Positions 1,765 through 23,846 of a stretch of 26,279 nucleotides of DNA are shown here, piece after piece. Below the pieces are notes generated by a model, which did no database searches, had not been told where the DNA came from, and was given only the letters and a program-made list of their open reading frames with translations. The stretch is from the NCBI GenBank assembly GCA_964646625.1, contig CAZYHC010000065.1:1-26279 (forward strand). Direction: 5' to 3'. The first letter of the stretch is position 1; every line of letters begins with the position of its first letter. Position numbers and translations under genes: made by a program. Source of the stretch: an uncultured Anaerolineales bacterium (GTDB lineage: Bacteria; Chloroflexota; Anaerolineae; CAZYHC01).

Positions 1765-1940
1765 TAGTCAATGATATGATGGGGCTTGACGATGACCGCG
1801 TGCAGAAGGAGGTGATAGCAATCGAGAGAACCATGAGCGCCGCTCTGAAGCCGCTGGTCCAGCGGCTGGACGTGTATAGCCAGCCGTGGCAAAGATGAAT
1901 GAACAACTTTTACTTTCTATTCAAGGAGGAAAGAAAGACA

Positions 1941-3977: not shown

Positions 3978-4006
3978 TTGCCAAGATAAGGAGAAGTAGG
4001 TATAAT
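3978..4006 (+). promoter_or_regulatory. Sigma70-type promoter TTGCCA, 17 nt spacer, TATAAT driving the DUF433/DUF5615 pair
   Basis: Exact 17-nt spacing. -35 at 3978-3983 and -10 at 4001-4006. A GGAGGAG RBS precedes ATG 4039. Confidence 0.5.
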
Positions 4007-5878: not shown

Positions 5879-5957
5879 ATATGCATAAGGTTTCATCCAA
5901 ATGACCATTGACGCACTTCTCGGATTAGGACCGGTCAAACCGGAAAGGAGGTTCCCT

Positions 5958-7028
5958 ATGAGGGAAAAAATCGTAAGGAGAGCCCCAATCTATCTTATCG
6001 TGTTCCTGCTGGTGGTGGGCACTGTCTCTTGCTCCGCCCTCCGCAACAGGCTGAGGGTGGGAGAAGCGCCGACCAACACCTCAGCGGCGGTGACGGAATT
6101 GCCCGGTTCGCCGGTGGCGGTGGAACAAGTGGAACCAGAGGAGCCCACAGAGAGGCCACAGCTGCCTACCGCCACACCTACCTTTACCCCTCTGCCCACC
6201 AACACGCCGGTGTTCGTGGTGCTGGAGCCCACCAAGACTCCCACCAGACTTCCCGCGACCAGCACTCCCACTGCCACCGCCTGGCCTACCGTCACCCCCA
6301 GCCCCACCAGGAGCCAAAGGGGAGCCGGCTCCAATGCTCCGGCCCAGAAGCCCGCGTACTACTGGCAAGACGTCCTGACCAATGGCGATTTTGAAGAAGG
6401 CTTCGGTTATGGCGGGGTGGCCCAGGGCTGGCACGGTTTTCACAACGGGTCCGCCGATTTCGTATGGGGCGATACTATCTGGGACGTGGCCGTCTGGGAG
6501 GGGAAACACGCTCAACTGATGAGCGTCCAAAATCCTCTCCAGGGCGACCGTTACGTCGGCATCTTTCAGACCTTCCCTGTCACTAAAGGACTGTCCTACG
6601 AATTCGCCTTTCACGGCCTGATTCAATCCAGCGCCGGGAGCGCCGAGGCTTCCAAATGGGGCAACCGCATCCAATGGGGCGTAGACTATAACGGCGGCAC
6701 CGACTGGCAAATGGTGAACTACTGGACCGACGCCGGCTGGGACGAATACCCCCTGCTGGACGGCTCTTCCATCATCGGCGATTACAGGATCACTCTCCAG
6801 GCTACCTCCGAGGCCATGACCATTTTCATCCGGGGCTGGAAGAAATGGGCCTGGTCAGGCAGCGTGGCTAACTTCTACCTGGATGGCATCAAGCTCAAGG
6901 GGCCCAAAATCGTCGAGGAACCCAGCAAACTCCCTACCACCGGCCTGACGCCGGGCCTGTTCCTGGTGGCCGGTCTCCTGGGTTTGCTGGTGGTCGCCTT
7001 CCGTCAGATACGCCGGAGCATGGCCTGA
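5958..7028 (+). CDS. LPXTG-anchored cell-surface protein with Pro/Thr linker and CBM4/9-like beta-sandwich domain
   Basis: Start moved to ATG 5958 (RBS GGAAAGGAGG); the ORF track begins at 5901. The signal and TM segment is IYLIVFLLVVGTVSCSA. A Pro/Thr-rich linker follows (PTATPTFTPLPTNTP...TPSPT). The domain begins NGDFEEGF...W, typical of CBM_4_9 or galactose-binding-like modules. The C-terminal sorting signal is LPTTG + LTPGLFLVAGLLGLLVVAF + RQIRRS. Confidence 0.7.
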   Translation: MREKIVRRAPIYLIVFLLVVGTVSCSALRNRLRVGEAPTNTSAAVTELPGSPVAVEQVEPEEPTERPQLPTATPTFTPLPTNTPVFVVLEPTKTPTRLPATSTPTATAWPTVTPSPTRSQRGAGSNAPAQKPAYYWQDVLTNGDFEEGFGYGGVAQGWHGFHNGSADFVWGDTIWDVAVWEGKHAQLMSVQNPLQGDRYVGIFQTFPVTKGLSYEFAFHGLIQSSAGSAEASKWGNRIQWGVDYNGGTDWQMVNYWTDAGWDEYPLLDGSSIIGDYRITLQATSEAMTIFIRGWKKWAWSGSVANFYLDGIKLKGPKIVEEPSKLPTTGLTPGLFLVAGLLGLLVVAFRQIRRSMA

Positions 7029-7049: not shown

Positions 7050-9071
7050 TCACTGCACTTCCAGGCGCTCGATGACGACGGCATCTGCCTCGGCCCAGCG
7101 GGGGTCGAGGACGTTCAGGCGTTCCATCGTCTCTTGAAAATATAACCCCAGTGCCAGGTGATAGCGCCCGGCCGGGGCTTCCGGGGCCAGGGGCAGCCAG
7201 CACTCCTCCCGGAAAGTCTGGCCTGCCTTCCAGCGGGAGGTGGGGTAGTAACTTAATTGCCTGCTAAGATCCGAGTACAGGATGCTGAGCGGCTGTTTAT
7301 CTAGCTGTCCCCAGCCCTGGCCGTTTGGTCCTACCAGGTGCACGAAAAGGTGGTAATCCCTCTCCATCTCGCTCAAAGCCTGCCAGTAGAGAGTGAGGTG
7401 AAACACCCCCTCTTTCTCCACCACGTTAGAACCCAGATCGTAGCCCAGCAGACGGATCTTATCCTCGAAATCGACCGCCAGGGAGAATTGAGGTTGAGCT
7501 TCCTGATAGAGCGGTATGGGGATCATTTGTACCAGGCCGTAGGGCGGATAGGCGCGTTTGCTGGCTTCCAGGGGGAAATCCAGCAGATAGAGGGGCCGCC
7601 CGGCCTCCAGACAGTTCTCGAACAGCTTTTTGCCCCCTTTCGAGGTCGGGTGGGCGGAGATCACCAGCAGATCGGGACGCTGGTCGGCGGTGTACTGGAA
7701 GTAACGTATGGCCGCCGTCAGCCCCGAAGGGCCGAGGAGCACCGCTTTTTCCTCCAGGGGGCGGGTCAAGACCTGCTGAGCGTAAGTGGCGGCGCTGTAA
7801 TCCCCGCTCATGTCCAATTCAGGGTAATGGCGATACAGGAGGCCCAGAGGAACGACCGCCCACAACAGGTAATAGAAGATGTAGGGAAGCTGGTAGCCTT
7901 TGGCCAGGTTGATAGCTTTCTGCCGGGCGGCGAGGAGAGACCACAGCCAGTCCAGCCCCACTCCCATCCAGATGGCGAAGATGAGGTAGGCGGGCAGGAA
8001 GTAAAACTGAGGCTCCTCGTGCCCCACCAGCGGGAGGCTGTAGGCCATCACCCCCAGGTAAGCCAGCCAGAGGAGAACAGAGGTCTTCCGCCCGATCACG
8101 ATCAGGCGAAAGGCCCCGATAGCGCCCACCAGCAGGCCCAGGGGACCAAACTGGGCAAACTGGGAATCCAGCCACACCCCCAGACGCTCGAAGAAGTGGG
8201 CCAGGGAATATATGCGCAAATAATAGGCGTATTCTCGCCCGGTGACGACGTTAATGAAGCCCGCCAGGGAATGCTGATAGTGGGCCGTGACCTTGCCCCG
8301 CAGGACGGCTTCGGGCAGGCTGGGATACAGTGCTGCGTTAGCCGGATCGGCCTGGGCCAACAGCACCCCTCCCCGCCAGGGAATGTAAAGATAAAGCAAC
8401 AGGGGCAGCAGGCCCACCAGCGCCGGCACCACCAGCCGCTTGAGCTTCAGGCCCGCGGTCAGAAAATAAAAGACGACGTAGGCCGGCAGCAAGAGGAGGA
8501 TCATGCGATGGTGAGCCAGGCTCAGGCCGTATGCCAGGGCAAAAAGCGTCAGCCAGCGGGCGCGTTCGGCCTCCTGTTCCTCTCGCAGCCCTCCCCAGCG
8601 GAGCAGCAGGTAGAGGGTCAGGGCCACGAAGAAAATATTGAGGGCATATACCCTGGCTACCACCGCCCCCGACCAAAAAGTGTGGCTCACCGCCAGGCAG
8701 AAGGCCGCTAAAATGGCCGGGGCGCGGGGTTCGATGACCTGGCGGACGGACAGGTAAACCAGGGGCACGGCCAGCGCAGTAGCCAACGCCGAGAGCAAAT
8801 TTACCCGATAAGCGACGTCCCCCAGCGGAATGAAGGTAAACAACTTGCCCAGCAGGGTGTAAAGCGGATAGCCGGTGGGATACAGCACCCCCAGGATGTA
8901 ACAGCCGTACTGGTGGGCGGCGCTATTGCCATACCACACCGTTGGGGCCATGGTCTTTAGGTAAAGCGCCAGGCTCCCTATAGCCAGAATCAGGGAAACC
9001 AGCCCATCCCCGGCCAACACTCTTTTTCGATTCTCTAATCGAGATTCGTTCACTTGTGCCACTGCCTGCAA
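7050..9071 (-). CDS. DUF2723-family polytopic membrane protein (GT39/PMT/ArnT-like glycosyltransferase fold) with C-terminal soluble domain
   Basis: The N-terminal YGNSAAHQYGCYILGVLYPTGYPLYTLLGKLF matches the DUF2723 signature (HPPGYPLY). There are >10 predicted TM helices and a ~200-aa C-terminal domain. It is the last gene of the minus-strand operon and overlaps the lipoprotein gene. Confidence 0.6.
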   Translation of the reverse strand: MQAVAQVNESRLENRKRVLAGDGLVSLILAIGSLALYLKTMAPTVWYGNSAAHQYGCYILGVLYPTGYPLYTLLGKLFTFIPLGDVAYRVNLLSALATALAVPLVYLSVRQVIEPRAPAILAAFCLAVSHTFWSGAVVARVYALNIFFVALTLYLLLRWGGLREEQEAERARWLTLFALAYGLSLAHHRMILLLLPAYVVFYFLTAGLKLKRLVVPALVGLLPLLLYLYIPWRGGVLLAQADPANAALYPSLPEAVLRGKVTAHYQHSLAGFINVVTGREYAYYLRIYSLAHFFERLGVWLDSQFAQFGPLGLLVGAIGAFRLIVIGRKTSVLLWLAYLGVMAYSLPLVGHEEPQFYFLPAYLIFAIWMGVGLDWLWSLLAARQKAINLAKGYQLPYIFYYLLWAVVPLGLLYRHYPELDMSGDYSAATYAQQVLTRPLEEKAVLLGPSGLTAAIRYFQYTADQRPDLLVISAHPTSKGGKKLFENCLEAGRPLYLLDFPLEASKRAYPPYGLVQMIPIPLYQEAQPQFSLAVDFEDKIRLLGYDLGSNVVEKEGVFHLTLYWQALSEMERDYHLFVHLVGPNGQGWGQLDKQPLSILYSDLSRQLSYYPTSRWKAGQTFREECWLPLAPEAPAGRYHLALGLYFQETMERLNVLDPRWAEADAVVIERLEVQ

Positions 9072-9610
9072 CGCGAGTAATACCAGCGGGGGGATACTTC
9101 CCGACGGGGCCGCTCGGCGGTACGCACCACGTAACGGTCCACCTCCACCCAGCCTACCACCTGACCTCCAGAGATCACCTTCAGGGCCTTATTGCCGCCT
9201 TTTACCTCGGCTGGTTGCAGCCTTTCTCCCCCCTCCAGCACCGAGAGGGCCAGAAGTTCCTCTTTGAATTGGGCCAGCGTCCACCTTTGCGGCTGAAGCT
9301 GGCCGTTCACCAGCATGACCACCTCCTCCGCTCTGGCCCCGAACTGGAGGTTATAATCCCCTTCGGGGCAGGAGGAGGTGGTGGGCGACGGGGTTGGAGT
9401 CGGGAGCGCCGTCTGCGGGGAAAGGGTGGGGGTGCTAAACGGGAAGGCGGGGGTGGGAGAGGGCCAGCCCGTGGGCCACTGCGGCTCAACCACATTATGG
9501 GTGCCCGTGCGTTGGACGCCAATCACGATGTCGCAGCCCGTCGATAAAAATAAGACCAGCGCCAATGGCAACCATAAGATGTCGATAACCCGCCCATTCT
9601 TCAGCGTCAA
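9050..9610 (-). CDS. Putative lipoprotein / exported protein with Pro/Thr-rich linker
   Basis: The ORF-track frame 9050..9739 overlaps the M23 gene in another frame. The plausible start is TTG at 9610, 4 nt after the M23 stop. That start gives MTLKNGRVIDILWLPLALVLFLSTGC, a signal peptide plus lipobox-like Cys. A PT-rich linker (PTPAFPFSTPTLSPQTALPTPTPSPTT) precedes a ~80-aa C-terminal domain. Confidence 0.5.
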   Translation of the reverse strand: MTLKNGRVIDILWLPLALVLFLSTGCDIVIGVQRTGTHNVVEPQWPTGWPSPTPAFPFSTPTLSPQTALPTPTPSPTTSSCPEGDYNLQFGARAEEVVMLVNGQLQPQRWTLAQFKEELLALSVLEGGERLQPAEVKGGNKALKVISGGQVVGWVEVDRYVVRTAERPRREVSPRWYYSRCRQWHK

Positions 9611-9614: not shown

Positions 9615-10295
9615 TCATTCCCCCGGCAAGAAATACATGGGATCGACAAACCCCCGCCCGCCCGGCTCGAAGGGGTGGTCTGGGGTGCCGGTCCACTGCA
9701 CCCCGACCAGGATCTCGAAATGCAGGTGAGGCCCCCCACTATAGCCCTCGCTGCCTACCCTGGCGATGAGCTGACCGCCGACCACATATTCCCCGGCGCG
9801 GACCAGGGCGGCGCTGTTGTGGGAATAAGTGGAGTATACGTCTTCGCCGTGACTGATGACCACGGCCTGTTCACCCCGTCCCACCCTGGCCCCCCGCAGA
9901 TACAGCCAGCCCACGTAGACCACCAGCCCGTCGCCTACGGCGTAGATGGGCGTGCCGGTCGGGGCACAAAGGTCGATGCCGGTGTGATAACCGGTAGGCT
10001 GGTAGTGGATCGGGTTGCCAAACCGCTGGCACAGCTCGGAAAAGGGCGCCAGGGGATTGTGGGTGATGTAAGCCAGCCCTTCGTATTGCGCCAGCACGGT
10101 CTCGATAGCCTCCCGATCGGTGACGTAGCCCCGCCCCAGTCTTTCCTGCGGGGAGGCCAGCAGGAAGGACACCTTATCCAGAAAAGTGACCACCTCTTTG
10201 GGGCCGACCTGGGTAGCCAGCAGACCCGCGCATAGCCCCACGATCAAAAACACGTCCAGGATCAGCATCCGGCGTCCAGGCTCAGGCCAGGCCAT
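9615..10295 (-). CDS. M23-family peptidoglycan metalloendopeptidase, membrane-anchored
   Basis: HTGIDL (HxxxD), SHNS and GGPHLHFEI (HxH) are the M23 Zn ligand and catalytic motifs. There is an N-terminal TM anchor. It lies 12 nt downstream of the ATPase gene. Confidence 0.85.
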   Translation of the reverse strand: MAWPEPGRRMLILDVFLIVGLCAGLLATQVGPKEVVTFLDKVSFLLASPQERLGRGYVTDREAIETVLAQYEGLAYITHNPLAPFSELCQRFGNPIHYQPTGYHTGIDLCAPTGTPIYAVGDGLVVYVGWLYLRGARVGRGEQAVVISHGEDVYSTYSHNSAALVRAGEYVVGGQLIARVGSEGYSGGPHLHFEILVGVQWTGTPDHPFEPGGRGFVDPMYFLPGE

Positions 10296-10307: not shown

Positions 10308-12530
10308 CTAAACGCCCCAGTGTTTGCGCAGGTCTCGTACCTCCGTCAGCGGCTTGCGGGCGAAAAGCTGCATCTCCCACTCTGTGGGGCTGGAATGCAC
10401 GTCCCGCAGCCATTTGCCTACCTGGAGCACAAAACGTCCCTTGAAAGGAGCCGCCGCGCCCGGGGGCCAGAATCGGCTGATCATGTGCACGATGTGTTCG
10501 CTCTCCAGCAATTGCAATTTGGGCAGAATCGGGTAGTCGTAGGTGAAAAAATCACAGAAAATCTGGGTGGTAGCCATGAGAGCAGCCATGCGCATCGGCT
10601 CGTTAGGGCGGTCGAGCATGGTGAGCGCCTGGGTGGTCCAGATGCCCACCGTGTCCTTGCCCAACCCCTGGGACAGAATTTCGGCCAGAATCAAAAGCCG
10701 GTCATCCGTAGCCGCGGCCCAGGGGAAAACCTCATCCACCACCAGCATCATGGGTTGCCCTTTTTTGGAGAGGCCCTGCACCCAGCGCAAGAAGATAATA
10801 TCCAGTGCGGGCTTGTGTTTCTGAGCCTGATAAAATATGTAACGCTCCTGGTTATAGCTTTGCAGCCGGCGGGCGAAAGCCTCCTGCTCTGTCGGGGCCT
10901 CGTCGGGAGTGATGAACACCCCACCCAGCCGCGAAAACACCCCCCACCATTCCGGGTCTTCGCCCGGCACCAGGGTCTTGTTGTTGATAACCGCGATGCG
11001 CCGGGTCAGACCCAGCATCCACAGCCGATAAAGAATGGTCTGGGCCAGAGTGCTTTTGCCCACCGTGGTCATGCCGATGATCCCCATGTGGCCGGTATGC
11101 CAGGGCGCCAGCGCCACCGGTCGGTTGGTGCGTTCCTCCCGTCCGATGAGGATGGCTTCCCTGGGCACGGCGTAGCCGTGGAAAGAGAGCATCGGTTTAG
11201 CCCGTTCCAGGTTCAGGAGCATGGTATCCCGGCCCGACAATCGATGGGGCACAGTAGGCAACAGGGCGTTCAGGATACGCTCGTTCTGGCGCTGCGAACG
11301 CCATTCCCGGTAGCGGATGCGGTCGTTGTTCAGGCTGTAGAGCGTATCGCGGTACATGGCCTCCAGGCGCTCGGCGGTGTACGCTTTAAGTATCAGCTCG
11401 GCCCGCACGTCGACCGGCATCTCTCCCTTGCGGATGCTGTCCACCACGGCGCGGCGTTGTTCAAACTCGGTTTTGCGATCTTCCGGGAACTCGCGCAGTT
11501 GGTTGCGTTGCTCGTCGCGCGCCAGTTGCATTTCCTCACGGCGGATGGCCAGCGCCCGGTTGCGACGGATAAAAACACTCCATTTCAGGATCACCTCGTC
11601 GCCGCTCTCCGCGATGCGGTCCTGAAGCCTCTCCCGCAATTGGGGGATGGTCATCTCCCCCAGGTGGAGCAGGGTCAGCCCCCGCAGATAGGCCGAGGGT
11701 CTGATAGGCGCGCCGGCCGGGGTCTCCTGAAAAATGACCCCTCTGGAAGTGATCCGCACCCAATCGGGCAGGATGAGCCGCACACAATCGCCAGTTTCCC
11801 GCCCCAGGGAGACGAAAGCTTCCACCCAACGCTCGTCTTGAGGACGGCGCAGGAGACGATAGAAGATGGGGAGAAACTCCACCTCGCGCAGGGAGAAGCT
11901 CAGCAGGCGTTGTCGGACGTAAGATGAGGGATCGCGGTCGAGCGGCCAGGCGATGAACGTTCTCAGCATTTTGGCCTGCTTACTCAGGCTGTGCAGCACC
12001 TCCTGATAGCTCTCCCAGGCCCGTCCGATTTCCTGGCGGACCCTCTTGTCTCGTACCCGCTGTTTGTGGTTCTCTACCTGTTCTTCGGCCCAGGTGCCGT
12101 GGGTGGTCAGATCGGGGGTCCCCATCCACATCAGGTCGAAGATGCACAAGGGAGCACCCAGCACCCCCAATTCCTGGCTGACCTTGTCCAAATCCTGAAC
12201 GTCCAGGTAGGGGAGCTTGTACAGAGCCACCTGGCGCCCATCGGGCCCGGCCAGACACCGGGGCGTGCCTCTGGCCGGCCAGCGTTCGTAGACGCCATCC
12301 AGCCTGCGCTGTCCGGACTCCGACCAGCGCTGCACGGCCTTATCCATCTCCTCCACCCGGATGGCCAACTGAAAGCCCAATTCCTGCACCTGGTCGGTCC
12401 GAGGCTGAATTTTAGTGGCGGCTTTCCTGGCCACTTCGGAACCCAATACCCGGATACGGGCCGTGGAGGCGGTTAAAAGCCCGCTCCCTTTGGTGCGCCA
12501 TGCCACGTCCAACAGATTGATACGCTTCAC
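10308..12530 (-). CDS. FtsK/HerA/VirB4-clade P-loop ATPase with large uncharacterised N-terminal region
   Basis: Walker A in the C-terminal half is HMGIIGMTTVGKST (H-hh-G-x-T-xx-GKS/T, as in VirB4, VirD4 and HerA). Walker B is MMLVVDEVFPW (compare DEAW). It is followed by GKDTVGIWTTQAL (compare RK-G...hhaTQ). The N-terminal ~450 aa has no motif I recognise. Confidence 0.7.
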   Translation of the reverse strand: MKRINLLDVAWRTKGSGLLTASTARIRVLGSEVARKAATKIQPRTDQVQELGFQLAIRVEEMDKAVQRWSESGQRRLDGVYERWPARGTPRCLAGPDGRQVALYKLPYLDVQDLDKVSQELGVLGAPLCIFDLMWMGTPDLTTHGTWAEEQVENHKQRVRDKRVRQEIGRAWESYQEVLHSLSKQAKMLRTFIAWPLDRDPSSYVRQRLLSFSLREVEFLPIFYRLLRRPQDERWVEAFVSLGRETGDCVRLILPDWVRITSRGVIFQETPAGAPIRPSAYLRGLTLLHLGEMTIPQLRERLQDRIAESGDEVILKWSVFIRRNRALAIRREEMQLARDEQRNQLREFPEDRKTEFEQRRAVVDSIRKGEMPVDVRAELILKAYTAERLEAMYRDTLYSLNNDRIRYREWRSQRQNERILNALLPTVPHRLSGRDTMLLNLERAKPMLSFHGYAVPREAILIGREERTNRPVALAPWHTGHMGIIGMTTVGKSTLAQTILYRLWMLGLTRRIAVINNKTLVPGEDPEWWGVFSRLGGVFITPDEAPTEQEAFARRLQSYNQERYIFYQAQKHKPALDIIFLRWVQGLSKKGQPMMLVVDEVFPWAAATDDRLLILAEILSQGLGKDTVGIWTTQALTMLDRPNEPMRMAALMATTQIFCDFFTYDYPILPKLQLLESEHIVHMISRFWPPGAAAPFKGRFVLQVGKWLRDVHSSPTEWEMQLFARKPLTEVRDLRKHWGV

Positions 12531-12620
12531 CGTCGTTCCCTACCAGGCCCGAAAGTCAAACTCTCAGGCCGAAAGCTCAGACCTGTTCAAGTATGTTTCA
12601 CCATCACCGCCAGCCTATTG

Positions 12621-14108
12621 TTACGGCTGGCTGCCCCCCTTTTGGCCGGGGATGCCGGGCGGAAGGGTGATGTCGGAGGGCATGAAGAGAGTGGCGCGGT
12701 CCTCCTTGGGGGTTTCAGCGATCTTTTCCATTAGCTCGATCGTGTAGATAGCCCTCGGGTCACCCTGATGTAGCAGCCAGCTTACCTTTTCCAGAACGGC
12801 TACGTACCGTTGAAGCAGGGCGGGGTCTATCACTCCTCCACCATCGGTCACAGCTTGCAGGAATTGGCCCAGATTCTCGGCCATAGTCGCGTTCATGACC
12901 TGCTCCAATCTGCGCCGGGCTTCGGCCCGGAACTCGGTGGCCTCCTGCTCTCCCCTGGCTTCGATGACATTGACCAGCCGCTCGGTTTCGGCCTGTAGTT
13001 GGCGGATAGCCCGCTCCCAGCTTATCTGGCGATAGTCACGCACCGGCCTTAGAGCCTCGTCGGTCTGAACTTCTACCTTCTCGATAGCCAGGTCCATGAT
13101 CTCCACCCCCCAACGCTCGACGTCTGCCTCCAACCGACGTCGTATCTCGTCCACCACTTCCTCGCGCGGGCTGGAGGTCCCGCTGGTCGTCCGTCTCATA
13201 GCCGGATCGCTGATGTCGTCCAGCGTGTAGCGGGCCACGATCTCCTGGGCCAGGAGTTTGGCCTGATCCCTGACCGCCTGCTGCCAGTCGTCCACCTTGA
13301 AGGCGGCGGCCAGGACGGCCTCCGGGTCGTAGGCCAGGAGGTCGTCCCAGGCAAACTCATCGTAGCGCCCATCTACGGAGCCTCGGCGGACTCGATAACG
13401 CACCAAAAGCTCGATATCGACTTCCACCCCGTCCCTGGTCAAAAGGTCTTCCACTTCCACGGAGTCCGTTTGGGGGTAGAGATCGACGACCGCCACGATG
13501 TATTCGAAATCGTCGGACATGAAGAAACGGCCTGCTATCCGCCTGAACCTTCCAAAGCGTTCGGTGATTACGGCGTCGCCCTTGTTCACCACTACCAGGG
13601 AGGGGCCTAGATCTCTAAGCTTGGAACCTTCGGGAAAGACGGATTTGCCTTCGCTGATAACGTGAACGGAGAGAGGATACATGGCGGTGCTGAGCATGAA
13701 AGCCCGTCTCATACCGATAACACCTTCAAATATCTGCATAATACGCCTGCCTAGCAGCCGTTGCCGCAGGAAGCGGGCATTGCCCAGACCCATCTCCACG
13801 TAGATCAGAGAGGTAAGGCCAAAGGCCGCCTCGAAGATCAACAGGCCCAGGCCCGCCAACAGCAACCCATCCAGCCAGGGAGAGATAGAGACCCTTTCCG
13901 GCTGGGCGAAAAGCCCGGCTATCAGGAGGAGGACCACCCCGAAAAGGACGGTCAAAATGTACCCCATGGGCCAATCCTCCCTGAATAGAGAGTGGTGCAG
14001 GGTTATCCCAGCGCACAGAATAAATATCAGGAGAGGGAACTCCCACCATCCCAGCAGCAAAAGCAGCACCGCGCCGATAAAACCCAACCACAAAAACGCC
14101 TTTATCAT
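12621..14108 (-). CDS. SPFH/band-7 (stomatin/flotillin-like) domain membrane protein
   Basis: Several N-terminal TM helices are followed by an SPFH core (VVVNKGDAVITERFGRFRRIAG...EVDIELLVRYRV...) and then a long Glu/Arg-rich coiled-coil tail. Confidence 0.75.
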   Translation of the reverse strand: MIKAFLWLGFIGAVLLLLLGWWEFPLLIFILCAGITLHHSLFREDWPMGYILTVLFGVVLLLIAGLFAQPERVSISPWLDGLLLAGLGLLIFEAAFGLTSLIYVEMGLGNARFLRQRLLGRRIMQIFEGVIGMRRAFMLSTAMYPLSVHVISEGKSVFPEGSKLRDLGPSLVVVNKGDAVITERFGRFRRIAGRFFMSDDFEYIVAVVDLYPQTDSVEVEDLLTRDGVEVDIELLVRYRVRRGSVDGRYDEFAWDDLLAYDPEAVLAAAFKVDDWQQAVRDQAKLLAQEIVARYTLDDISDPAMRRTTSGTSSPREEVVDEIRRRLEADVERWGVEIMDLAIEKVEVQTDEALRPVRDYRQISWERAIRQLQAETERLVNVIEARGEQEATEFRAEARRRLEQVMNATMAENLGQFLQAVTDGGGVIDPALLQRYVAVLEKVSWLLHQGDPRAIYTIELMEKIAETPKEDRATLFMPSDITLPPGIPGQKGGSQP

Positions 14109-14141
14109 GATGATGGCCTCCTTACCGTGACATCGCCCCCC

Positions 14142-14822
14142 TCAAATGCGGATGGTGATAACCAGATCGTACAGAGACGAAACGTACATAAGCAAGACGA
14201 ACCCAATAGCTGCCCCCAACAGAATGGTCAGCAGGGTCAAGACCCTGGTGCGGCGGAATATCCAAAACTGGAAAAGCACCCAGCAGATGAGGCCCACCCC
14301 CAGGGCGACGATCAGCAGCACCTCCAGCCTGGGGTGGCCGACCACGGGCTGCAAGATGCCGTACCAGGTGATAAAGCCGCTCTCCAGGCCCAGCGAGATG
14401 GATACCATTAGCTGCTCCCAGGGGGGGCTGATGGTGTCCACCCGGTGCTCATCCTGGCGGCTCAAAACGGACGGTTTGAGCCCCAGCCAGTAGAGAAAAT
14501 CGTGAGCCCCGTCTCTCCAGGGAATGGTGTAACGAATAATATCGGCCACGATGACCACCGCGGTCAAAACGAGCCAGCCTTTGAGGCCCCGCGGATCGGA
14601 TGGGGTGGCAAACCAGTAGGTCAGCCCCAGGGGTAAGCCCAGGAACATCAGAAAAGCGACCAGGAGCACCTCAAAACGCAAAGGGATGTGCACAATGGGC
14701 AGATAGAACCATTCGTGCTCCAGGGTCAGCATGGTTGACCGAATAAACATATTCTCGTCCCAGGCCTGGATCAGCTTCGCCCATATACTGGTCCCATTCT
14801 TTTCCCTGGACCTGGCAGCCAT
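14142..14822 (-). CDS. Integral membrane protein (~4 TM), function unknown
   Basis: Hydrophobic segments, 12 nt downstream of the large membrane protein gene, same operon. No recognisable motif. Confidence 0.5.
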   Translation of the reverse strand: MAARSREKNGTSIWAKLIQAWDENMFIRSTMLTLEHEWFYLPIVHIPLRFEVLLVAFLMFLGLPLGLTYWFATPSDPRGLKGWLVLTAVVIVADIIRYTIPWRDGAHDFLYWLGLKPSVLSRQDEHRVDTISPPWEQLMVSISLGLESGFITWYGILQPVVGHPRLEVLLIVALGVGLICWVLFQFWIFRRTRVLTLLTILLGAAIGFVLLMYVSSLYDLVITIRI

Positions 14823-14834
14823 TTAACCGCTCCC

Positions 14835-16760
14835 CTAGCCCTGTTTATCTTTGGGCACAACCTGGGCCATCATCTCACGGCCTATACTTTCCATAGAAGC
14901 AGCCAGTTTTTCGTCGGTGGCCCGCAAACGACCGGCATACGCTTTGGCCTGCTCGACGGCCTTTTTGACGGAGATGTATTCCACCGTGCCCACCACGGTG
15001 GCCGCCACAATAGCCCACACCAGAGGGTCAGGCAAATCCACCAGGGTCTTGACGAAAGGTTCTGGCAGGCCGAGCGTTTTCCCCGAAGCCTGGATGAAAG
15101 CATCCAGGCGGGACACCCCGCGGGGCGGCGGTGGATTTGGCGGATTAGATGGCCTGGCCGGCTTCGATGGCTCCGAGGAGCCCGGAGGGGGCTCAGGCCC
15201 CGCAGGAACGACCACCCCCGCCTCCACCGGCGAGCTCACGGTGGCCTCCGAAGGCCACTGCCGGGCCATCTCCACGGGAAGAGTGGTGCTGACCTCTCCC
15301 TGCTCAGTCGGGCCGGTCACGGTATACCCGCTCCTGTGAAGGGTTTCCTGCTCGCTGCGCAGCACTTCCAGGGAACGGCGCAGTTGCTCAATCTCGCTCT
15401 CCTGGACAGTCTCGATGCGTTGCTGTCTCATACGGTCCAGGAAATCGGCTATAAAGTTGATGACTACCGGCAAAGTTGTGCCGGCCACCAGGCCAGCCAG
15501 CAGCGGTGAGGGAGCAGGCGCGGCGGGCACGGCCTCTCTGGGGGGCGGGTCCCCTCCTACCTCCTCGGTCATCCGTTCTAAGGCGGCCGCGGCGCCACCT
15601 ACTATGGTATCAGGCAGACGAGCCCAGGAGTAGACTACGGCCAGCAACGCGAAAGGCCCCACGAAACTGAACGGCGGCGTGTGAATGATGATGGGCGTGA
15701 TCATGATCAATCCGTAGAGCAGGGCCTGAGTGGAGACCGTTCGCAGAAAGGCCACCACCGAGCGCGACATTTGACGGGTGCGGTTCAGGCCCAGACCGGC
15801 CCCCACGTCCCAGGGCAACTTGGCTCCGCGAAAGACCATCTCCAGCAGCCGATAGGTCCCCTGCCAGAGCGTCACCCCCAGAAAGTAGAGCACAAAGATG
15901 CCGACGATGACCGTAATCCAGACCGTGGAGGCGCTCAACAGGTTGGCTATGGTCTGCCACAGCAGCGTCCCCGGCGAAGGACCGGGGGCCAAAGCGTACA
16001 ATTGCTCGACGATAACGCGAAGGCCAAAGCGGGCAGCCCGGATAACCGCTTCGTATAACTCCAGCCCCAACTGGGTGAAGCCGATCAGGACGATCAGGCG
16101 GCTCAGAAGCTCAAAGGGCGTTTCTATGCCCCGTCCCTTCCAGATGATATCCCAATCGGTCATCTGCGCTTCGGACACGCCGGAACGCCTCAACCGCAGG
16201 ATGGCCTTGCGGGCCCGCAATGGATAGTAAACGAGGAAGATGGCCCATCCATAATTGAAGGCCCACAGCAGCAGGTTGAAGATAACACCCCAGGGATTAT
16301 CGGGCGTCATGCTGGGGAAGACCAGGACCTGCTCCGTCCAGTTGTCCCAGGCGGCGGCCAGTTGCTCTCCACCAAGCAGCGTCACCAGGTCAGCGGCCTT
16401 GTGATCGGGGTCGAGGGCGAAGGCCAGGGCCGTCTCCACGGTTTGATCGTCCACGCCCATCAGTCTGGCGAAACTGGCCATGGCTCGCAGCAGTAAATTG
16501 GGCTTACGGGGCGGAGGCGGACCAGGCCCAAACGGAGCAGTAGTGGTCACGGTTACCGTATCCGTGATCTGGGCCCTGGCCTCCAGAATGGGACCATACT
16601 CCACCAAGAAGCCCACCCGCGGTTCTGCTGCCCAGGTTGCCTGGGGGCTTAATATCAAGAGGACTGACAGGCCGACGAGCCCGCCACATAAGAGCATCAT
16701 CTGGAAAGGACGCCCGCCAGGCCCCCTTTCCTGGTGAGGGCGTTCCCTTCCCCAAGGCAT
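14835..16760 (-). CDS. Large polytopic membrane protein (signal peptide, ~7 TM, coiled-coil, Pro-rich C-terminal region, terminal TM); VirB6/TrbL-like architecture (speculative)
   Basis: Likely start is ATG 16760, giving MPWGRERPHQERGPGGRPFQMMLLCGGLVGLSVLLILSPQATWA|AEP. The ORF track begins at TTG 16787. Multiple TM helices are followed by EIEQLRRSLEVLRSEQE and the Pro-rich PAGPEPPPGSSEPSKPARPSNPPNPPPP, then a final hydrophobic helix. Confidence 0.5.
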   Translation of the reverse strand: MPWGRERPHQERGPGGRPFQMMLLCGGLVGLSVLLILSPQATWAAEPRVGFLVEYGPILEARAQITDTVTVTTTAPFGPGPPPPRKPNLLLRAMASFARLMGVDDQTVETALAFALDPDHKAADLVTLLGGEQLAAAWDNWTEQVLVFPSMTPDNPWGVIFNLLLWAFNYGWAIFLVYYPLRARKAILRLRRSGVSEAQMTDWDIIWKGRGIETPFELLSRLIVLIGFTQLGLELYEAVIRAARFGLRVIVEQLYALAPGPSPGTLLWQTIANLLSASTVWITVIVGIFVLYFLGVTLWQGTYRLLEMVFRGAKLPWDVGAGLGLNRTRQMSRSVVAFLRTVSTQALLYGLIMITPIIIHTPPFSFVGPFALLAVVYSWARLPDTIVGGAAAALERMTEEVGGDPPPREAVPAAPAPSPLLAGLVAGTTLPVVINFIADFLDRMRQQRIETVQESEIEQLRRSLEVLRSEQETLHRSGYTVTGPTEQGEVSTTLPVEMARQWPSEATVSSPVEAGVVVPAGPEPPPGSSEPSKPARPSNPPNPPPPRGVSRLDAFIQASGKTLGLPEPFVKTLVDLPDPLVWAIVAATVVGTVEYISVKKAVEQAKAYAGRLRATDEKLAASMESIGREMMAQVVPKDKQG

Positions 16761-16773
16761 CGCGGTCAGAGCG

Positions 16774-17097
16774 TTACCCCCCTCCAAAAATGCTGATGAC
16801 TACTGGCTTGACGAAATTGGCGATCGCGTTCCGCACGTCATCTTTTAAAAGCCAGGCCACCGGAATGGCCACCGCCGTCAGGCCCGCGGTCAGGAATTGA
16901 TCGCGGACCCCTTTCCAGGCGCCAGGGGCGACGGGCTGCCCCGCCGTGGCTGCGTCTCGCTGGACCTTGTTGCTGAAACGCAGCGCACGCCACAACAACC
17001 AGCCAGTGAGAATGGGCGGACCGTAGGTCATCAAGAGCCCCACCAGACGCTGGATGCCGTTCAGGATACCGCTAACACCTGAAACCAACGGCTCCAT
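16774..17097 (-). CDS. Small 2-TM membrane protein, first gene of operon
   Basis: Preferred start is ATG 17097, with AGGAGGTG 6 nt upstream. The ORF track offers TTG 17133. The product MEPLVSGVSGILNGIQRLVGLLMTYGPPILTGWLLW...AVAIPVAWLL is 107 aa. Its stop overlaps the start of the next gene. Confidence 0.45.
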   Translation of the reverse strand: MEPLVSGVSGILNGIQRLVGLLMTYGPPILTGWLLWRALRFSNKVQRDAATAGQPVAPGAWKGVRDQFLTAGLTAVAIPVAWLLKDDVRNAIANFVKPVVISIFGGG

Positions 17098-17163
17098 TAC
17101 CTTCACCTCCTCTCGGTGAAAATTCATGCTCAACTATTTGATACCTGGAGTTTATCTCCCTTT

Positions 17164-17192
17164 ATTATACCTGTAGTTTACTATTAAGTCAA
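17164..17192 (-). promoter_or_regulatory. Consensus sigma70 promoter (TTGACT, 17 nt spacer, TATAAT) for the 8-gene minus-strand operon
   Basis: On the minus strand the -35 TTGACT is at 17192-17187 and the -10 TATAAT at 17169-17164, with exactly 17 nt between. It lies in an AT-rich intergenic island. Confidence 0.55.
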
Positions 17193-17420: not shown

Positions 17421-17654
17421 ATGTATAGTTATATAAATAACCTGGCAACTTCACTCTCTTTGCTTTATCTATTTTATGTCATACTTTTTTATTTTCAATA
17501 TAGGTGGCTAAGAGTGAGTCTGGCCAGGTTGAACGTTCTCAGAGGGTCGAGTGGACAGGGCCTGGTGGAATACGCCCTCATCCTGGTCATGGTGGCGGTG
17601 GTGGTTATTGCCATCTTGATGTTGCTGGGGCCGGCCATCAGCAACGTCTTTTGA
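17421..17654 (+). CDS. flp: Flp/Fap-family pilin (Tad pilus major subunit) with unusual N-terminal extension
   Basis: GQGLVEYALILVMVAVVVIAILMLLGPAISNVF matches the Flp motif G-X4-EY followed by a hydrophobic helix. The first ~30 codons (MYSYINNLATSLSLLYLFYVILFYFQYRWLR) are AT-rich and hydrophobic. An alternative start is GTG 17513 (RBS AGGTGG), which gives a conventional ~47-aa prepilin. Confidence 0.65.
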   Translation: MYSYINNLATSLSLLYLFYVILFYFQYRWLRVSLARLNVLRGSSGQGLVEYALILVMVAVVVIAILMLLGPAISNVF

Positions 17655-20982: not shown

Positions 20983-21633
20983 ATGGGCTTGTGGCGCAAA
21001 CTGGTAACTTTTGGTTTTCGTCTCTTGTATAATGAGTTGGCCTGGACTTACGACTGGGTGAGTTGGGCTGTATCTCTGGGGCAGTGGCGGGGTTGGCAGC
21101 GGGCCGTTTTGCCCTACCTGGCCGGCCAGCGACTTTTGGAGGTGGCCTTCGGCACGGGCGATCTGCTGCTCGACCTGAACGCAGCCGGATATCGGTGTTA
21201 TGGGGTCGATCTATCGCCCTACATGCTGCGCATAGCCTCGGCCAAGTTGCGGCGGAAGGGCCTGGAGGTCCCGCTGTGTCGGGCACGAGCGGAAGGGCTG
21301 CCATTTTGCGACGAAGCCTTCGACTCTATAGCCATCACTTTTCCCACCAACTTCATCCGCGATCGGCGCGTGGCCCGCGAACTGGCCCGCGTTCTGAAGC
21401 CAGGCGGACGGGCGGTGATCGTGGAGGAAGGCTATCTCGGCGGTCAACACCCCTTGAGCCTGTTCATCAACTGGCTTTACGTCATCACCGGCCAGCGAGG
21501 GTCATCGCCGCTGGTGGACGACCAGTTCGTTGAGTTCGTTGTGGCGCTCGGCCAGGCCGGGTTGACCGCCCGACGGGAGCAAGGCCGCGATCACACCAGT
21601 CAGGTAAAGCTGATTGTGGCTACTAAAAAGTGA
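20983..21633 (+). CDS. Class I SAM-dependent methyltransferase
   Basis: Motif I is LEVAFGTGDLLLDL, the acidic residue is in YGVDLS, and the post-II motif is LKPGGRAVIVEE. It starts 6 nt after the M28 gene and overlaps the next gene by 4 nt (GTGA). Confidence 0.75.
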   Translation: MGLWRKLVTFGFRLLYNELAWTYDWVSWAVSLGQWRGWQRAVLPYLAGQRLLEVAFGTGDLLLDLNAAGYRCYGVDLSPYMLRIASAKLRRKGLEVPLCRARAEGLPFCDEAFDSIAITFPTNFIRDRRVARELARVLKPGGRAVIVEEGYLGGQHPLSLFINWLYVITGQRGSSPLVDDQFVEFVVALGQAGLTARREQGRDHTSQVKLIVATKK

Positions 21634-23846
21634 GTGTGGTGAAGCCAGTGAATCCTTACATCACCAGCCGACCGATCGGCGATGAAAAGATGTTCTTTGG
21701 ACGAGAGGAAGTTTTCACCTGGCTGGCCGAGAATCTATTCAGGGGCCGCCGGATATTTGTCCTGTATGGCCCGAAACGTATCGGTAAAACCTCGCTCCTC
21801 AGACAGTTGCCTCGCTATCTGCCGGCCGAGTACATTCCTCTCCAACTCCACCTGCAAATCGAAGGGCTGCCGGACGCCGACGCTCTGCTCCGCCAGGTGA
21901 TCATCGATCTGAGGCGCAAGCTGGGCGAAGAAGGCTGGCTTGTCCCGTCTGAGCCTGCCTGGGACGACAACGAACTGTTTTATGAGCAGGTCGCTTCTCT
22001 GGCCGACCGCTTCCTGACCGCCATGGAACAGCAGATGGGGGAACGAACCCTGGTCCTGATCTTCGACAACGTAGAGGTTCTGCTGGAAGATGAAGTGGGG
22101 CGCGAGTTGTTCTGGTCCTTCGCCGCTCAGATGGCTACCTATCTGGACAAGGGTTCCGGGTTATGCTTTATCTTCGCTCTGGACGGGACTGATAGCTCAA
22201 AGTGGGAGGGGTTCCCGCTCTTAGATCATGCTCTCTATCTCCGTCTCGGCCCGCTGGGGAAGGAAGGGGCTACGGCGCTGGTGACCAGGCCGGTGGAGGG
22301 CGTATTGGATTACGATCCCCGGGCGGTGAACCGCCTCCTGGAACTGACCTCCAGGTATCCTTATTTCCTCCAACTGTTCTGTTACATGCTTTTTAACCGC
22401 TGCGCCAAGAGCGGCGGGTACGTCAGTCTTCACGATGTGGGCACCGTTTTGGACGCACTGTTGGAGCTGGAGATTTCCTATTTTGAGGGGTTGTGGGAAG
22501 CTTCCACTGCCGAGGAGAAACTGGTGCTGGCTGCGCTGGGTGTTCTACGTGGCGGACACGGCATCGCCACCCAGCAGGAGGTGGGTAACGCCCTGCGTGC
22601 ACAAGGCACGCGCATCAGCCAGACAGGGGTAAGCACCGCCCTGGAGTCTCTGGCGCGTGGTGGGGTTTTGGAACGGCTGGGGGCCTTGAGCTACCGCTTC
22701 AGCGTGGATATGTTCCGGGTGTGGCTGGGCAGACACAAGGAAGTGGAAAAGGTGATAGAGGAATTACAGCCGCCAGCCAAAGTGCCGGCTATTCTGCCTC
22801 GTTCGCGCCGGGAGTTCTCCCTTATGGTGGTAACCCTGATTGTGCTGGGGTTGGCCGCTTTCGGTCTATGGCGGTTGATAGTGCCGCCGGGGCCAGGCCC
22901 GACCCCAACGGTCTCGCCCTCGCCAGTTCCCTCCCCGACCCTGACTGCCACCCCAGAAAAAGTGGCGGTCACGCCCATACCCACTCAAACGCCAGGGGCG
23001 ACCCCGACGGTTACCCCGCCCCTGGTGGTGGCTCGCCCCATCCCTGCCATCGCCTACATGGTCAAAGTTATGGAGGACGCTCCCTGGCAGATATACGTCA
23101 TGGATAGCGAAGGGGCCAACCCGGCCCCCCTGACCGACACCCCCAGTAATGATACCGCCCCCCTTTGGTCGCCTGATGGGCACCAAATTGCCTTCGTGTC
23201 CGACAGGAACGGCGACAGGGACATCTACGTCATGAATAGCGACGGCTCTGAGGCGGTGAATCTGACCGACAATGCGGCTGACGATTTAATGCCTACCTGG
23301 TCGCCAGATGGAGAGCAGATAGCCTTTGTGTCGCGCCGTGATGGCAACTGGGAGCTCTACGTTATGAAGGCCGATGGAACGGAGGTGGTACGGCTTACCT
23401 ACAATGAGGCCGATGACTGGACGCCAGCCTGGTCGCCTGGTGGGGACGAGCTCGCTTTCGCCTCAAATCGGGATGGCAACTGGGAAATTTATCTCATGAA
23501 CAGCGATGGCTCGTATTCGAGCAGGTTAACTTATAATACGGCCACAGATATTTCCCCGGCCTGGTCGCCTCGGGGGGACAGGATTGCCTTCGAGACCACC
23601 CGTGACGGCGACGCCGAGATATACCTGATGCGAGCCGATGGCAGCGGCCAGACTAACCTGAGCCGTGATCGTACGGCCGATGATCACTGGCCCAGTTGGG
23701 CGCCTGATGGCAGCAGAATTGCTTTTTGTTCCAACCGGCGAGGGGGCAATTGGGATATTTTTGTTATGAGCGATCAGGGCACCGACGTAATCAACCTGAC
23801 CGAAGGCAGTGCGGCCAATGAGCAGGGCCCGGCCTGGCGACCTTGA
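21630..23846 (+). CDS. AAA/STAND-like ATPase (AAA_16/ORC-type N-domain) - single TM - Pro/Thr linker - TolB/PD40 beta-propeller fusion protein
   Basis: The N-terminal FFGREEVFTWL...IFVLYGPKRIGKTSLL (Walker A) and LVLIFDNVE (Walker B) match AAA_16/Arch_ATPase-type domains. TM helix FSLMVVTLIVLGLAAFGLWRLIV lies at aa ~400. A PT-rich linker follows. There are >=7 repeats of the form W/SPDG..IAF.S.RDG..DIY.M..DGS, which are PD40/TolB blades. The start is either GTG 21630 or ATG 21690. Confidence 0.75.
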   Translation: MSVVKPVNPYITSRPIGDEKMFFGREEVFTWLAENLFRGRRIFVLYGPKRIGKTSLLRQLPRYLPAEYIPLQLHLQIEGLPDADALLRQVIIDLRRKLGEEGWLVPSEPAWDDNELFYEQVASLADRFLTAMEQQMGERTLVLIFDNVEVLLEDEVGRELFWSFAAQMATYLDKGSGLCFIFALDGTDSSKWEGFPLLDHALYLRLGPLGKEGATALVTRPVEGVLDYDPRAVNRLLELTSRYPYFLQLFCYMLFNRCAKSGGYVSLHDVGTVLDALLELEISYFEGLWEASTAEEKLVLAALGVLRGGHGIATQQEVGNALRAQGTRISQTGVSTALESLARGGVLERLGALSYRFSVDMFRVWLGRHKEVEKVIEELQPPAKVPAILPRSRREFSLMVVTLIVLGLAAFGLWRLIVPPGPGPTPTVSPSPVPSPTLTATPEKVAVTPIPTQTPGATPTVTPPLVVARPIPAIAYMVKVMEDAPWQIYVMDSEGANPAPLTDTPSNDTAPLWSPDGHQIAFVSDRNGDRDIYVMNSDGSEAVNLTDNAADDLMPTWSPDGEQIAFVSRRDGNWELYVMKADGTEVVRLTYNEADDWTPAWSPGGDELAFASNRDGNWEIYLMNSDGSYSSRLTYNTATDISPAWSPRGDRIAFETTRDGDAEIYLMRADGSGQTNLSRDRTADDHWPSWAPDGSRIAFCSNRRGGNWDIFVMSDQGTDVINLTEGSAANEQGPAWRP

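Follow-up and report, generated by a model that had tools for sequence, protein, structure and literature searches.

What does the tightly packed minus-strand operon in this uncultured Anaerolineae (Chloroflexota) genome encode? A first-pass annotation had described five genes (A to E) behind a consensus promoter as an undescribed envelope machine. All five indeed lie on the minus strand, and their reading frames, gaps and overlap confirm an operon: A and B overlap by 14 nt (counting B from its TTG start), and gaps of 12, 33 and 90 nt separate B from C, C from D and D from E. The sigma-70-type promoter (TTGACT-17 nt-TATAAT; 17164..17192, minus strand) matches the consensus at 11 of 12 positions, and the window, the whole 26-kb stretch of DNA analysed, contains four sites that reach at least 11/12 at this 17-nt spacing versus 0.03 expected. 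The -35/-10 block is 100% conserved in the sister genome (L001), though the intergenic DNA around it has diverged. The unit had been thought to end with E at 10308, but it continues down to 7050 with genes for an M23 peptidase (F), a Pro/Thr-rich membrane-anchored protein (G) and a glycosyltransferase (H). No terminator-like site was found between E and F, which are 12 nt apart; F and G are separated by 4 nt, and G and H overlap. The operon extends from 17192 to 7050, and H is probably its last gene. Curated libraries (Pfam, NCBIfam, PADLOC and PHROGs) name the SPFH (D), M23 and glycosyltransferase genes only, leave the other operon genes unnamed and, as the annotation had expected, assign the set to no described system.

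Gene E (10308..12530, minus strand) encodes a soluble 740-aa protein with an N-domain and a P-loop domain, carrying Walker A (GMTTVGKST), Walker B (MMLVVDE) and TTQ motifs. Its earlier placement in the FtsK/HerA/VirB4 clade was right and is now narrowed to VirB4 by hhalign and Foldseek. A search of 1.84 billion representative proteins yielded three real relatives of E; the ordinary VirB4 HMM does not detect it (-1.4 bits), and none of the curated VirB4 models fires. Comparison of hhalign profiles from six members of the E family and eight Gram-positive VirB4s (PrgJ type) gave 97.7% probability (E 2e-12) over 288-295 collinear columns, aligning residues ~235-543 of E with ~208-515 of PrgJ, N-domain included. 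Such likeness might reflect a shared P-loop clade alone, with E as a generic FtsK/HerA-clade ATPase in a different machine, for instance an unknown complex for secretion, cell-wall remodelling or membrane maintenance with SPFH and M23 proteins at its centre. We consider this unlikely. The VirB4 alignment reaches ~200 columns upstream of the P-loop, whereas the EccC and T4CP control alignments do not: EccC matched the family over 69 P-loop columns only (E 4.3e-5), and T4CP, a two-sequence profile and as such a weaker control than the eight-sequence VirB4 profile, scored 0.71. The N-domain of E alone also aligned collinearly with VirB4 (E 7.7e-5 to 1.2e-3, at hhalign probabilities of only 19-62%), compared with 0.5-0.7 for reversed-sequence controls and 0.076 for EccC. 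Both structure searches placed VirB4 first, and the ten best Foldseek matches were all R388 TrwK/VirB4 chains (~730-850 columns; E 7e-11 to 1e-6). A gene order that mirrors Gram-positive T4SS modules also argues against a generic ATPase, and an SPFH protein outside the conserved core, as described below, argues against an SPFH-centred machine. Together, these data show that E, though extremely diverged, is a true member of the VirB4 ATPase family and retains intact Walker A and B motifs, which makes the operon most likely a chromosomal, non-conjugative relative of Gram-positive T4SSs.

The family occurs in very few genomes, so co-conservation of its neighbours rests on four lineages. The only taxonomically assigned relative of E comes from Ca. 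Chisholmbacteria (Microgenomatia, Patescibacteria; locus L004), where genes for proteins of 104, 524 and 239 aa precede the ATPase, and an M23 peptidase and a 277-aa protein follow it. Loci L007 and L018 share the order 106 aa, 499 aa, 234 aa and ATPase, and in L017 the ATPase gene is followed by a partial gene matching the N-terminal, non-catalytic part of the M23 protein from L004 (E 2e-11). The core order small-polytopic-4-TM-ATPase-M23 recurs in Ca. Chisholmbacteria and two other metagenomic lineages; E is co-inherited across phyla with small hydrophobic, polytopic, 4-TM and membrane-anchored M23 proteins. The original grouping stands for these proteins but not for the SPFH protein. Gene D (12621..14108, minus strand) encodes this 495-aa SPFH/Band-7 protein (Pfam Band_7, 1.4e-15), with four N-terminal TM segments, the Band_7 domain and a C-terminal helical region; it had no match among PDB sequences. 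D is also present in the sister genome (70% identity), but the Chisholmbacteria cluster has no SPFH gene, and the one near L007 is of an unrelated subfamily and lies on the opposite strand. D is outside the conserved core and inside the operon in the Anaerolineae lineage only, a lineage-specific insertion. What links it to the machine is its place in the operon, seen in only two genomes, which are closely related.

Among the membrane proteins of the core, the 226-aa product of gene C (14142..14822, minus strand) has four TM segments by hydropathy and a cytoplasmic-loop motif (L.W.GL.....L ... IS) conserved across phyla. It aligns with its CPR counterparts at an hhalign E of 0.0029, and the counterpart gene is directly upstream of the ATPase gene in L004, L007 and L018. 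C is a candidate docking subunit for the ATPase, a VirB3 analogue by position only. Gene B (14835..16787, minus strand) encodes 650 aa as its longest ORF; an alternative ATG at 16700 would yield 621 aa, and the NCBI call is 590 aa. Hydropathy of the translation indicates a signal peptide or TM segment at the N-terminus, ~7 further TM segments and a TM segment at the C-terminus; by eye, the sequence also shows a coiled-coil-like region (~450-485) and a Pro-rich one (~525-556). A search among 5.8 billion proteins returned B itself and its sister protein only, the AF2 model was unusable (pLDDT 34.5), and the match to the 524- and 499-aa proteins at the same position in L004 and L007 was weak (hhalign E 0.0011, 141 columns). 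The reported VirB6/TrbL-like character of B holds as an analogy in size, topology and position, but sequence or structural homology was not found; B is a candidate channel and a VirB6 analogue by position only. Gene A (16774..17097, minus strand) encodes 107 aa from an ATG with the ribosome-binding site GGAGGTGA, its longest ORF beginning at 17133. Its product has two moderately hydrophobic helices; because no segment exceeds 1.5 on the Kyte-Doolittle scale, the 2-TM topology assigned to it is plausible but not demonstrated. Genes of 104-107 aa occupy the same position in L001, L004, L007 and L018, with weak cross-phylum alignment. A has no family match in curated libraries, and profile comparison with PrgF/G/I and VirB2/B3 gave no hit either; its position would suit a pilin-like or VirB3-like subunit.

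Downstream of E, gene F (9615..10295, minus strand) encodes an M23 peptidoglycan endopeptidase (Pfam Peptidase_M23, 2.9e-26) anchored by an N-terminal TM segment. It is similar to the M23 protein of L004 (E 5e-11) and is a candidate wall-opening enzyme, analogous to VirB1/PrgK. Gene G (9050..9610, minus strand) starts with TTG behind a GGGGGA ribosome-binding site, 4 nt past the F stop codon. No family match was found for its 186-aa product, which begins with a TM segment or lipoprotein-like signal and continues through a linker rich in Pro and Thr to a C-terminal domain of ~100 aa. PT-rich proteins with an N-terminus resembling a lipobox are also encoded close to the cluster, downstream of M23 in L004 (277 aa) and upstream in L007 (240 aa), with similarity to G confined to the low-complexity linker. 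Gene H (7050..9071, minus strand) encodes a GT-C-type glycosyltransferase (Pfam TMEM260-like, 6.1e-34; PMT_2, 1.3e-7) and has the same position in the sister genome; no counterpart was shown in the CPR loci.

A minimal monoderm conjugation module consists of VirB4, a polytopic protein and a wall hydrolase, so the operon might be the mating-pair-formation module of an ICE that has its relaxase, coupling-protein and integrase genes beyond the 26-kb window; coupling-protein genes are often distant from virB4 (PMC12102498). The genomic setting makes this very improbable. As first noted, the window contains no relaxase or coupling protein (T4CP), and no integrase was found there either; a relaxase or coupling ATPase could be located elsewhere in the genome. 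GC content is even across the window, and the flanking genes, none of them of a mobile element, encode sensor kinases, peptidases, methyltransferases and a sugar kinase. The whole region, flanks and cluster, is identically syntenic in the sister Anaerolineae MAG at ordinary divergence (68-91% identity for operon proteins, 86-88% for flanking genes). The Chisholmbacteria cluster sits among chromosomal genes (ParB, L21, FtsW, IleRS), and no members of the gene family were found in IMG/VR. Least credible of all seems a role in anti-phage defence, with a HerA/FtsK-like ATPase at the core of the system. PADLOC gave a weak match of E to mad8 (9.5e-5, residues 460-564), and a STAND NTPase and a toxin-antitoxin pair are present elsewhere in the window. 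The mad8 match spans only the P-loop, however, and PADLOC detected no other MADS or defence component in the operon. Moreover, membrane proteins and wall enzymes account for five of the eight operon products, and the position of the cluster is conserved in the sister genome rather than within a variable island.

Overall, we favour, at a probability of roughly 60%, a model where the operon is a chromosomally fixed, relaxase-less, non-conjugative derivative of a monoderm-type T4SS in Anaerolineae. A hexamer of the VirB4 protein E would dock on C, acting in a VirB3-like role, and energise assembly of, or transport through, a channel formed by B in a VirB6-like role, with A as a pilin-like or accessory subunit. 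F would locally cut peptidoglycan cross-links, allowing the apparatus to span the wall, and G would be a wall-spanning anchor, with H possibly glycosylating its Pro/Thr-rich linker. D would have been recruited in the Anaerolineae lineage only; as an oligomeric ring or microdomain, it would probably act on the membrane complex as a scaffold or in quality control. Homology to anything known could be demonstrated for the ATPase and the M23 peptidase only; profile comparison of A, B, C and G with PrgD-M and with Ti VirB1/2/3/5/6 gave no similarity, and the putative roles of these four are inferred from size, topology and gene order. As the window contains neither relaxase nor coupling ATPase, the substrate is probably not a mobile element's own DNA. 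Candidate activities are protein export, assembly of a pilus-like fibre and DNA uptake in the manner of archaeal Ced/Ted. A domesticated T4SS for DNA import or exchange, a special case of the favoured model, is in our view a rather remote prospect. Ced/Ted are domesticated T4SS derivatives that share with the operon a layout of small 2-TM proteins, a channel protein with 6-7 TM segments and a VirB4-like ATPase, are chromosomal, have no relaxase or T4CP, and have components unrecognisable by plain sequence search (PMC9905601). The operon has no DNA-processing or DNA-binding genes, however, and comparable T4SSs of Patescibacteria are thought likelier to export proteins (PMC10633639).

Of the known systems, pCF10 (MPF_FATA) has the order PrgH/VirB6, PrgI/VirB3, PrgJ/VirB4, PrgK hydrolase and PrgL. 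The operon parallels it, as the suggested resemblance to monoderm mating-pair formation implied, with a polytopic protein, a small membrane protein, VirB4, a peptidoglycan hydrolase and a bitopic protein in the same order; E is homologous to PrgJ-type VirB4, and outer-membrane core genes are missing from both. Unlike pCF10, the operon has no relaxase, coupling ATPase or adhesin, is chromosomal and syntenic rather than on a mobile element, and carries an SPFH gene and a GT-C glycosyltransferase; its hydrolase is of the M23 type, whereas PrgK is annotated as lysozyme-type, its accessory proteins have no detectable sequence similarity, and its ATPase is unseen by ordinary VirB4 HMMs. Like the operon, T4SSs described in Patescibacteria are chromosomal, relaxase-less and of Gram-positive type, and have peptidase or lysozyme genes adjoining virB4 (Wang et al. 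2023, PMC10633639; Quinonero-Coronel et al. 2025, PMC12102498). The operon likewise has a peptidase gene beside virB4, and the one taxon-assigned relative of E comes from a patescibacterium. To call the machine undescribed was therefore too strong. The operon differs in its Chloroflexota host and large genome context, in that TrsD and a VirB2-like pilin array were not detected in it, and in its SPFH gene, which is not reported for those systems. Ced/Ted, unlike the operon, are archaeal and have neither wall hydrolase nor SPFH protein, and the N-terminus of B does not resemble A in the way that CedA resembles CedA1. SPFH proteins have been tied to membrane machines with FtsK/VirB4-clade ATPases before: in S. 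aureus, the SPFH scaffold FloA aids assembly of the T7SS, which uses an FtsK-type secretion ATPase (PMC5718613), and Agrobacterium T4SS proteins are enriched in SPFH-marked detergent-resistant membranes, an association described there as independent of the SPFH proteins (PMC8656257). In both of those bacteria the SPFH genes are unlinked and serve many clients, whereas here the SPFH gene lies between the membrane-subunit genes and the ATPase gene.

The region from 17192 to 7050 holds eight minus-strand genes, designated A to H in operon order. The five genes and the consensus promoter described in the first-pass annotation were recovered: the five open reading frames are present, and the promoter, TTGACT-17-TATAAT at 17192–17164 (−), matches the consensus at 11 of 12 positions. 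Gene A (17097–16774, 107 aa) has an ATG start and a ribosome-binding site (GGAGGTGA), and is followed by the polytopic gene B (16787–14835; 650 aa as the longest open reading frame, 621 aa from the ATG at 16700), the four-transmembrane (4-TM) gene C (14822–14142, 226 aa), the SPFH gene D (14108–12621, 495 aa) and the ATPase gene E (12530–10308, 740 aa). The unit does not end at 10308, as had been proposed, but continues through three further genes on the same strand. The M23 peptidase gene F (10295–9615) starts 12 nt past E; G (9610–9050; 186 aa, with an N-terminal TM segment and a Pro/Thr-rich linker) starts 4 nt past F; and H (9071–7050), encoding a TMEM260-like/PMT glycosyltransferase, overlaps with G. 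The gene downstream of H lies on the opposite strand and is convergent.

The window contains four promoter matches of at least this quality, compared with 0.03 expected from shuffles, and the other three are also intergenic. L001, the corresponding locus of a sister Anaerolineae MAG in which the adjacent intergenic DNA has diverged, carries the entire promoter block unchanged. The further 11/12 matches to TTGACA-17-TATAAT lie at 3978–4006 (+), 25938–25966 (−) and 26037–26065 (−), and this host seems to employ sigma-70 promoters close to the consensus. Directly behind a consensus promoter, a DUF433/DUF5615 (PIN-like) pair at 4039–4783 (+) is a probable toxin-antitoxin module. Pfam and PADLOC profile searches, suggested in the first-pass annotation as a check, were run together with NCBIfam and PHROGs on all eight operon proteins and named only the SPFH protein, the M23 peptidase and the glycosyltransferase.

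The ATPase E has a P-loop domain of the FtsK/HerA/VirB4 clade, in which Walker A, Walker B (hhhhDE) and a TQ-type motif are all intact. Pfam returned just DUF87 (0.0069, below cut-off) and NCBIfam just EccCb (0.0031, a sub-threshold P-loop match). PADLOC gave a sub-threshold match to mad8 (9.5e-5), and a reading of the cluster as a defence system was rejected because this match is confined to the P-loop. An ordinary HMM built from eight Gram-positive VirB4s taken from plasmids (PrgJ/CD1110 and TrsE types) scored E at −1.4 bits and its relatives from Patescibacteria (CPR) at ~15 bits, which explains why no library names E. Profile–profile comparison of the six-member E family with the eight VirB4s gave a match at 97.7% (E-value 2e-12) over 288–295 collinear columns. 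The aligned span, ~235–543 of the window ATPase and ~208–515 of PrgJ, the VirB4 of pCF10, takes in most of the region before the P-loop (~200 columns preceding Walker A), together with Walker A itself and the strand that follows. When the P-loop half was removed, the N-terminal part alone produced the same alignment with E-values of 7.7e-5 to 1.2e-3 and a probability of just 19–62%; reversed controls gave 0.5–0.7. As further controls, an EccC profile aligned with the E family over 69 P-loop columns only (4.3e-5) and did not match the N-terminal part significantly (0.076), and a coupling-protein profile built from two sequences gave no match to the family (0.71).

Sequence searches of the PDB yielded noise for E alone and weak P-loop matches only for the family profile, and tblastn of E against plasmids found coupling proteins at a non-significant E-value of 0.8. 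An AF2 model of E from five sequences was poor overall, with a better ATPase core. In a Foldseek search with this model (pLDDT 44.6), the best ten matches were chains of the R388 VirB4 protein TrwK, aligned over the full length with E-values of 7e-11 to 1e-6 and a TM-score of ~0.2 (~0.22). These were followed by EccC, EssC, FtsK and HerA, each aligned over the ATPase domain only. Overall, E is very probably a VirB4 homologue.

Word-indexed searches of 5.8 billion proteins with E and B returned only the query and one 84–88% identical sister protein each, and a word-indexed search with the ATPase profile likewise found only the protein itself and the sister genome. Exhaustive HMMER analysis of 1.84 billion representatives revealed three real distant relatives of E at 21–23% identity, one from Candidatus Chisholmbacteria (Patescibacteria, Microgenomatia) and the others metagenomic; P0007, also in this list, is a repeat-protein artefact. 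Scanning genome contigs recovered the sister MAG only, scanning metagenomes recovered only the Chisholmbacteria locus (L004) again, and IMG/VR scans for family members recovered nothing.

The window and the sister locus are syntenic across the whole region, with operon proteins 68–91% and flanking genes 86–88% identical, which looks like ordinary vertical inheritance. L004 encodes, in order, proteins of 104, 524 and 239 aa, the ATPase (817 aa), an M23 protein (422 aa) and a 277-aa PT-rich protein, and its neighbours are the chromosomal genes ParB, L21, FtsW and IleRS. In the metagenomic loci L007 and L018, proteins of 106, 499 and 234 aa precede the ATPase, and in a third, L017, the gene after the ATPase encodes a homologue of the N-terminal, non-catalytic part of the M23 protein from L004 (E-value 2e-11). 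In the CPR loci, the gene for the conserved 4-TM protein immediately precedes that for the ATPase. A loop motif, L.W.GL.....L...IS, and C-terminal residues are common to the 4-TM proteins (hhalign E-value 0.0029), and the large B-type proteins give a weak but collinear alignment (0.0011). From these gene orders and alignments, A, B, C, E and F therefore form a conserved core. The data show that a VirB4-family motor has been inherited together with three membrane proteins and a peptidoglycan endopeptidase anchored in the membrane, at a locus that is chromosomal and stable and is organized as one operon with a strong promoter. The most divergent family member, the L017 ATPase P0008 (133–2679, 848 aa), has an extended N-terminus that includes a hydrophobic stretch (IIPGSVFVITFALRRVFSMVVYAYSLV), conceivably a membrane anchor or else a VirB3-like segment acquired by fusion.

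Hydropathy analysis predicted a signal peptide or TM segment plus ~7 more TM segments in B, four TM segments in C, four N-terminal ones in D and none in E, and only moderate hydrophobicity in A. A, B, C and G had zero matches in Pfam, NCBIfam, PADLOC and PHROGs, and comparison of their families with the pCF10 conjugation proteins PrgD–M and with Ti VirB1/2/3/5/6 (hhalign, ~60 comparisons) gave none below an E-value of 0.03. The polytopic B sits at a VirB6-like position and resembles neither PrgH nor Ti VirB6 at the profile level; C, with its four TM segments and ~230 aa, lacks similarity to PrgI or VirB3; and neither A nor its counterparts matched T4SS_pilin or TrbC in Pfam. A CedA/CedA1-style relation of A to the N-terminus of B was tested, and no likeness was seen. 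An AF2 model of B from two sequences (pLDDT 34.5) was too poor and was excluded from the fold search. The N-terminus of B in the window is signal-peptide-like and contains no Cys, unlike its CPR counterparts (L004 7644–9218 and L007 3054–4553), which have lipobox-like N-termini (ALLSSGC and FFLTGC). F was identified as Peptidase_M23 in Pfam (2.9e-26), and as an immediate neighbour of E it reproduces a feature of monoderm T4SSs, a peptidoglycan hydrolase adjoining virB4. A conserved GT-C glycosyltransferase partner was considered and rejected, as H and a 420-aa protein of L004 show no similarity; the latter has no Pfam match.

The protein D matches Pfam Band_7 (1.4e-15, residues 173–363) and, besides this domain, has the membrane anchor and helical C-terminal region of SPFH proteins, the helical region being judged from sequence alone; a PDB sequence search with D gave zero matches. 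The first-pass annotation had counted an SPFH scaffold as part of the machine. D lies inside the cluster solely in the Anaerolineae pair, the window and L001, and is a lineage-specific addition instead of a component of the conserved set. L007 contains an SPFH gene (442–1395 (−), 317 aa) just upstream of the homologous cluster on the opposite strand, and a conserved SPFH partner was rejected because this unrelated protein and D show no specific similarity. Also just upstream of the L007 cluster is a PT-rich lipoprotein-like gene (1616–2338 (+)). An SPFH gene is found at most five genes from the ATPase in two of the three readable lineages, a very small sample, and this proximity may be beyond chance.

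The remaining window genes encode a sugar kinase, a DUF11 protein, the toxin-antitoxin pair, methyltransferases, two sensor kinases, an M28 peptidase and a STAND NTPase. GC content is uniform across the window, in which no Rfam family was found. A 77-aa Flp/Fap-type pilin gene at 17421–17654 (+) (...GQGLVEYALILVMVAVVVIAIL..., Pfam Flp_Fap 4.3e-5, below cut-off) is divergent from the operon promoter region, in the same layout as in the sister genome (L001 4874–5107); because it is absent beside the CPR clusters, a connection with the VirB4 machine is improbable. At 5901–7028 (+), a 375-aa protein with no Pfam domain has an N-terminal TM segment and an extended Pro/Thr-rich linker; at its C-terminus, LPTTG precedes a hydrophobic stretch and an RR tail. 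Such a putative sortase-type sorting signal is suggestive of wall anchoring of the Gram-positive kind in this Anaerolineae. The STAND-type NTPase (21630–23846 (+), 738 aa; nSTAND1/AAA_16) is fused to PD40 beta-propeller repeats and is kept in the sister.

No relaxase, coupling protein (VirD4/TcpA) or integrase was found among the main open reading frames of the 26-kb window, nor in the 10 kb on either side in L001 and L004. The lack of a relaxase and coupling protein nearby makes it probable that the substrate is not the DNA of an element itself; candidate functions are the export of proteins, the assembly of a fibre and DNA import of the Ced/Ted kind (PMC9905601). Our preferred reading of the cluster, to which we assign a probability of about 60%, is a T4SS-derived envelope machine. 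In such a machine, a VirB4 hexamer of E would dock on C and drive either assembly of the B channel or transport through it, F would cut a local opening in the wall, and G would span the wall. H may glycosylate the Pro/Thr-rich linkers, and D would assemble into an SPFH ring, either as a scaffold for the complex or to police it. A further-reaching proposal, which we put forward only tentatively and consider rather unlikely, is an unrecognised, deep-branching T4SS-derived class with its own A, B and C families, undetected by CONJscan-type and Pfam profiles, that pre-dates the Chloroflexota/Patescibacteria split or reflects very early exchange. Its SPFH cage would be an integral, dedicated subunit in Anaerolineae, and its role would be non-conjugative, for example cell–cell transfer within filaments or consortia.

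T4SS surveys depend on detection by VirB4 HMMs, and this VirB4 lineage falls below it (−1.4 bits with the proxy HMM built here). The lineage has no curated match, yet has retained the monoderm T4SS gene order; poorly sampled phyla may therefore hold more machines of this sort than have been counted. The presence of a patescibacterium among the closest relatives bears on the origin of the essential non-conjugative CPR T4SS, and on the proposed CPR–Chloroflexota affinity. An SPFH gene placed between channel subunits and motor ATPase would represent genetically hard-wired SPFH scaffolding of a secretion machine, a relationship so far inferred from unlinked genes only. As a counterweight, the family is rare, comes from uncultured organisms and is known here from its sequences.

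Among described systems, the window order B, C, [D], E, F, G parallels that of pCF10, PrgH (VirB6), PrgI (VirB3), PrgJ (VirB4), PrgK (wall hydrolase) and PrgL, although apart from E the match is one of position, size and topology only. In type VII systems the ATPase (EccC/EssC) is membrane-anchored, with FtsK-like domains repeated two or three times in tandem, and the substrates are WXG100 proteins; in contrast, E contains just one P-loop domain and lacks TM segments, and the operon contains no WXG100-like gene. SPFH proteins have been connected to secretion elsewhere: FloA promotes EssC-driven T7SS assembly (PMC5718613), and T4SS proteins of Agrobacterium are located in SPFH-marked membranes (PMC8656257). 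Relaxase-less chromosomal T4SSs of the Gram-positive type, with a peptidase or lysozyme beside virB4, are known and essential in Patescibacteria (PMC10633639, PMC12102498), and Ced/Ted are domesticated T4SSs of Archaea (PMC9905601). The earlier view of a T4SS-like set outside the reach of standard tools is thus borne out, whereas that of a wholly undescribed machine is not, as its kind is already known. A recent T4SS review mentions neither Chloroflexota nor SPFH, and we count the host phylum as new since this review omits it. What is new here, besides the host phylum, is the extreme divergence of the VirB4, membrane-subunit families without known relatives and an embedded SPFH gene.
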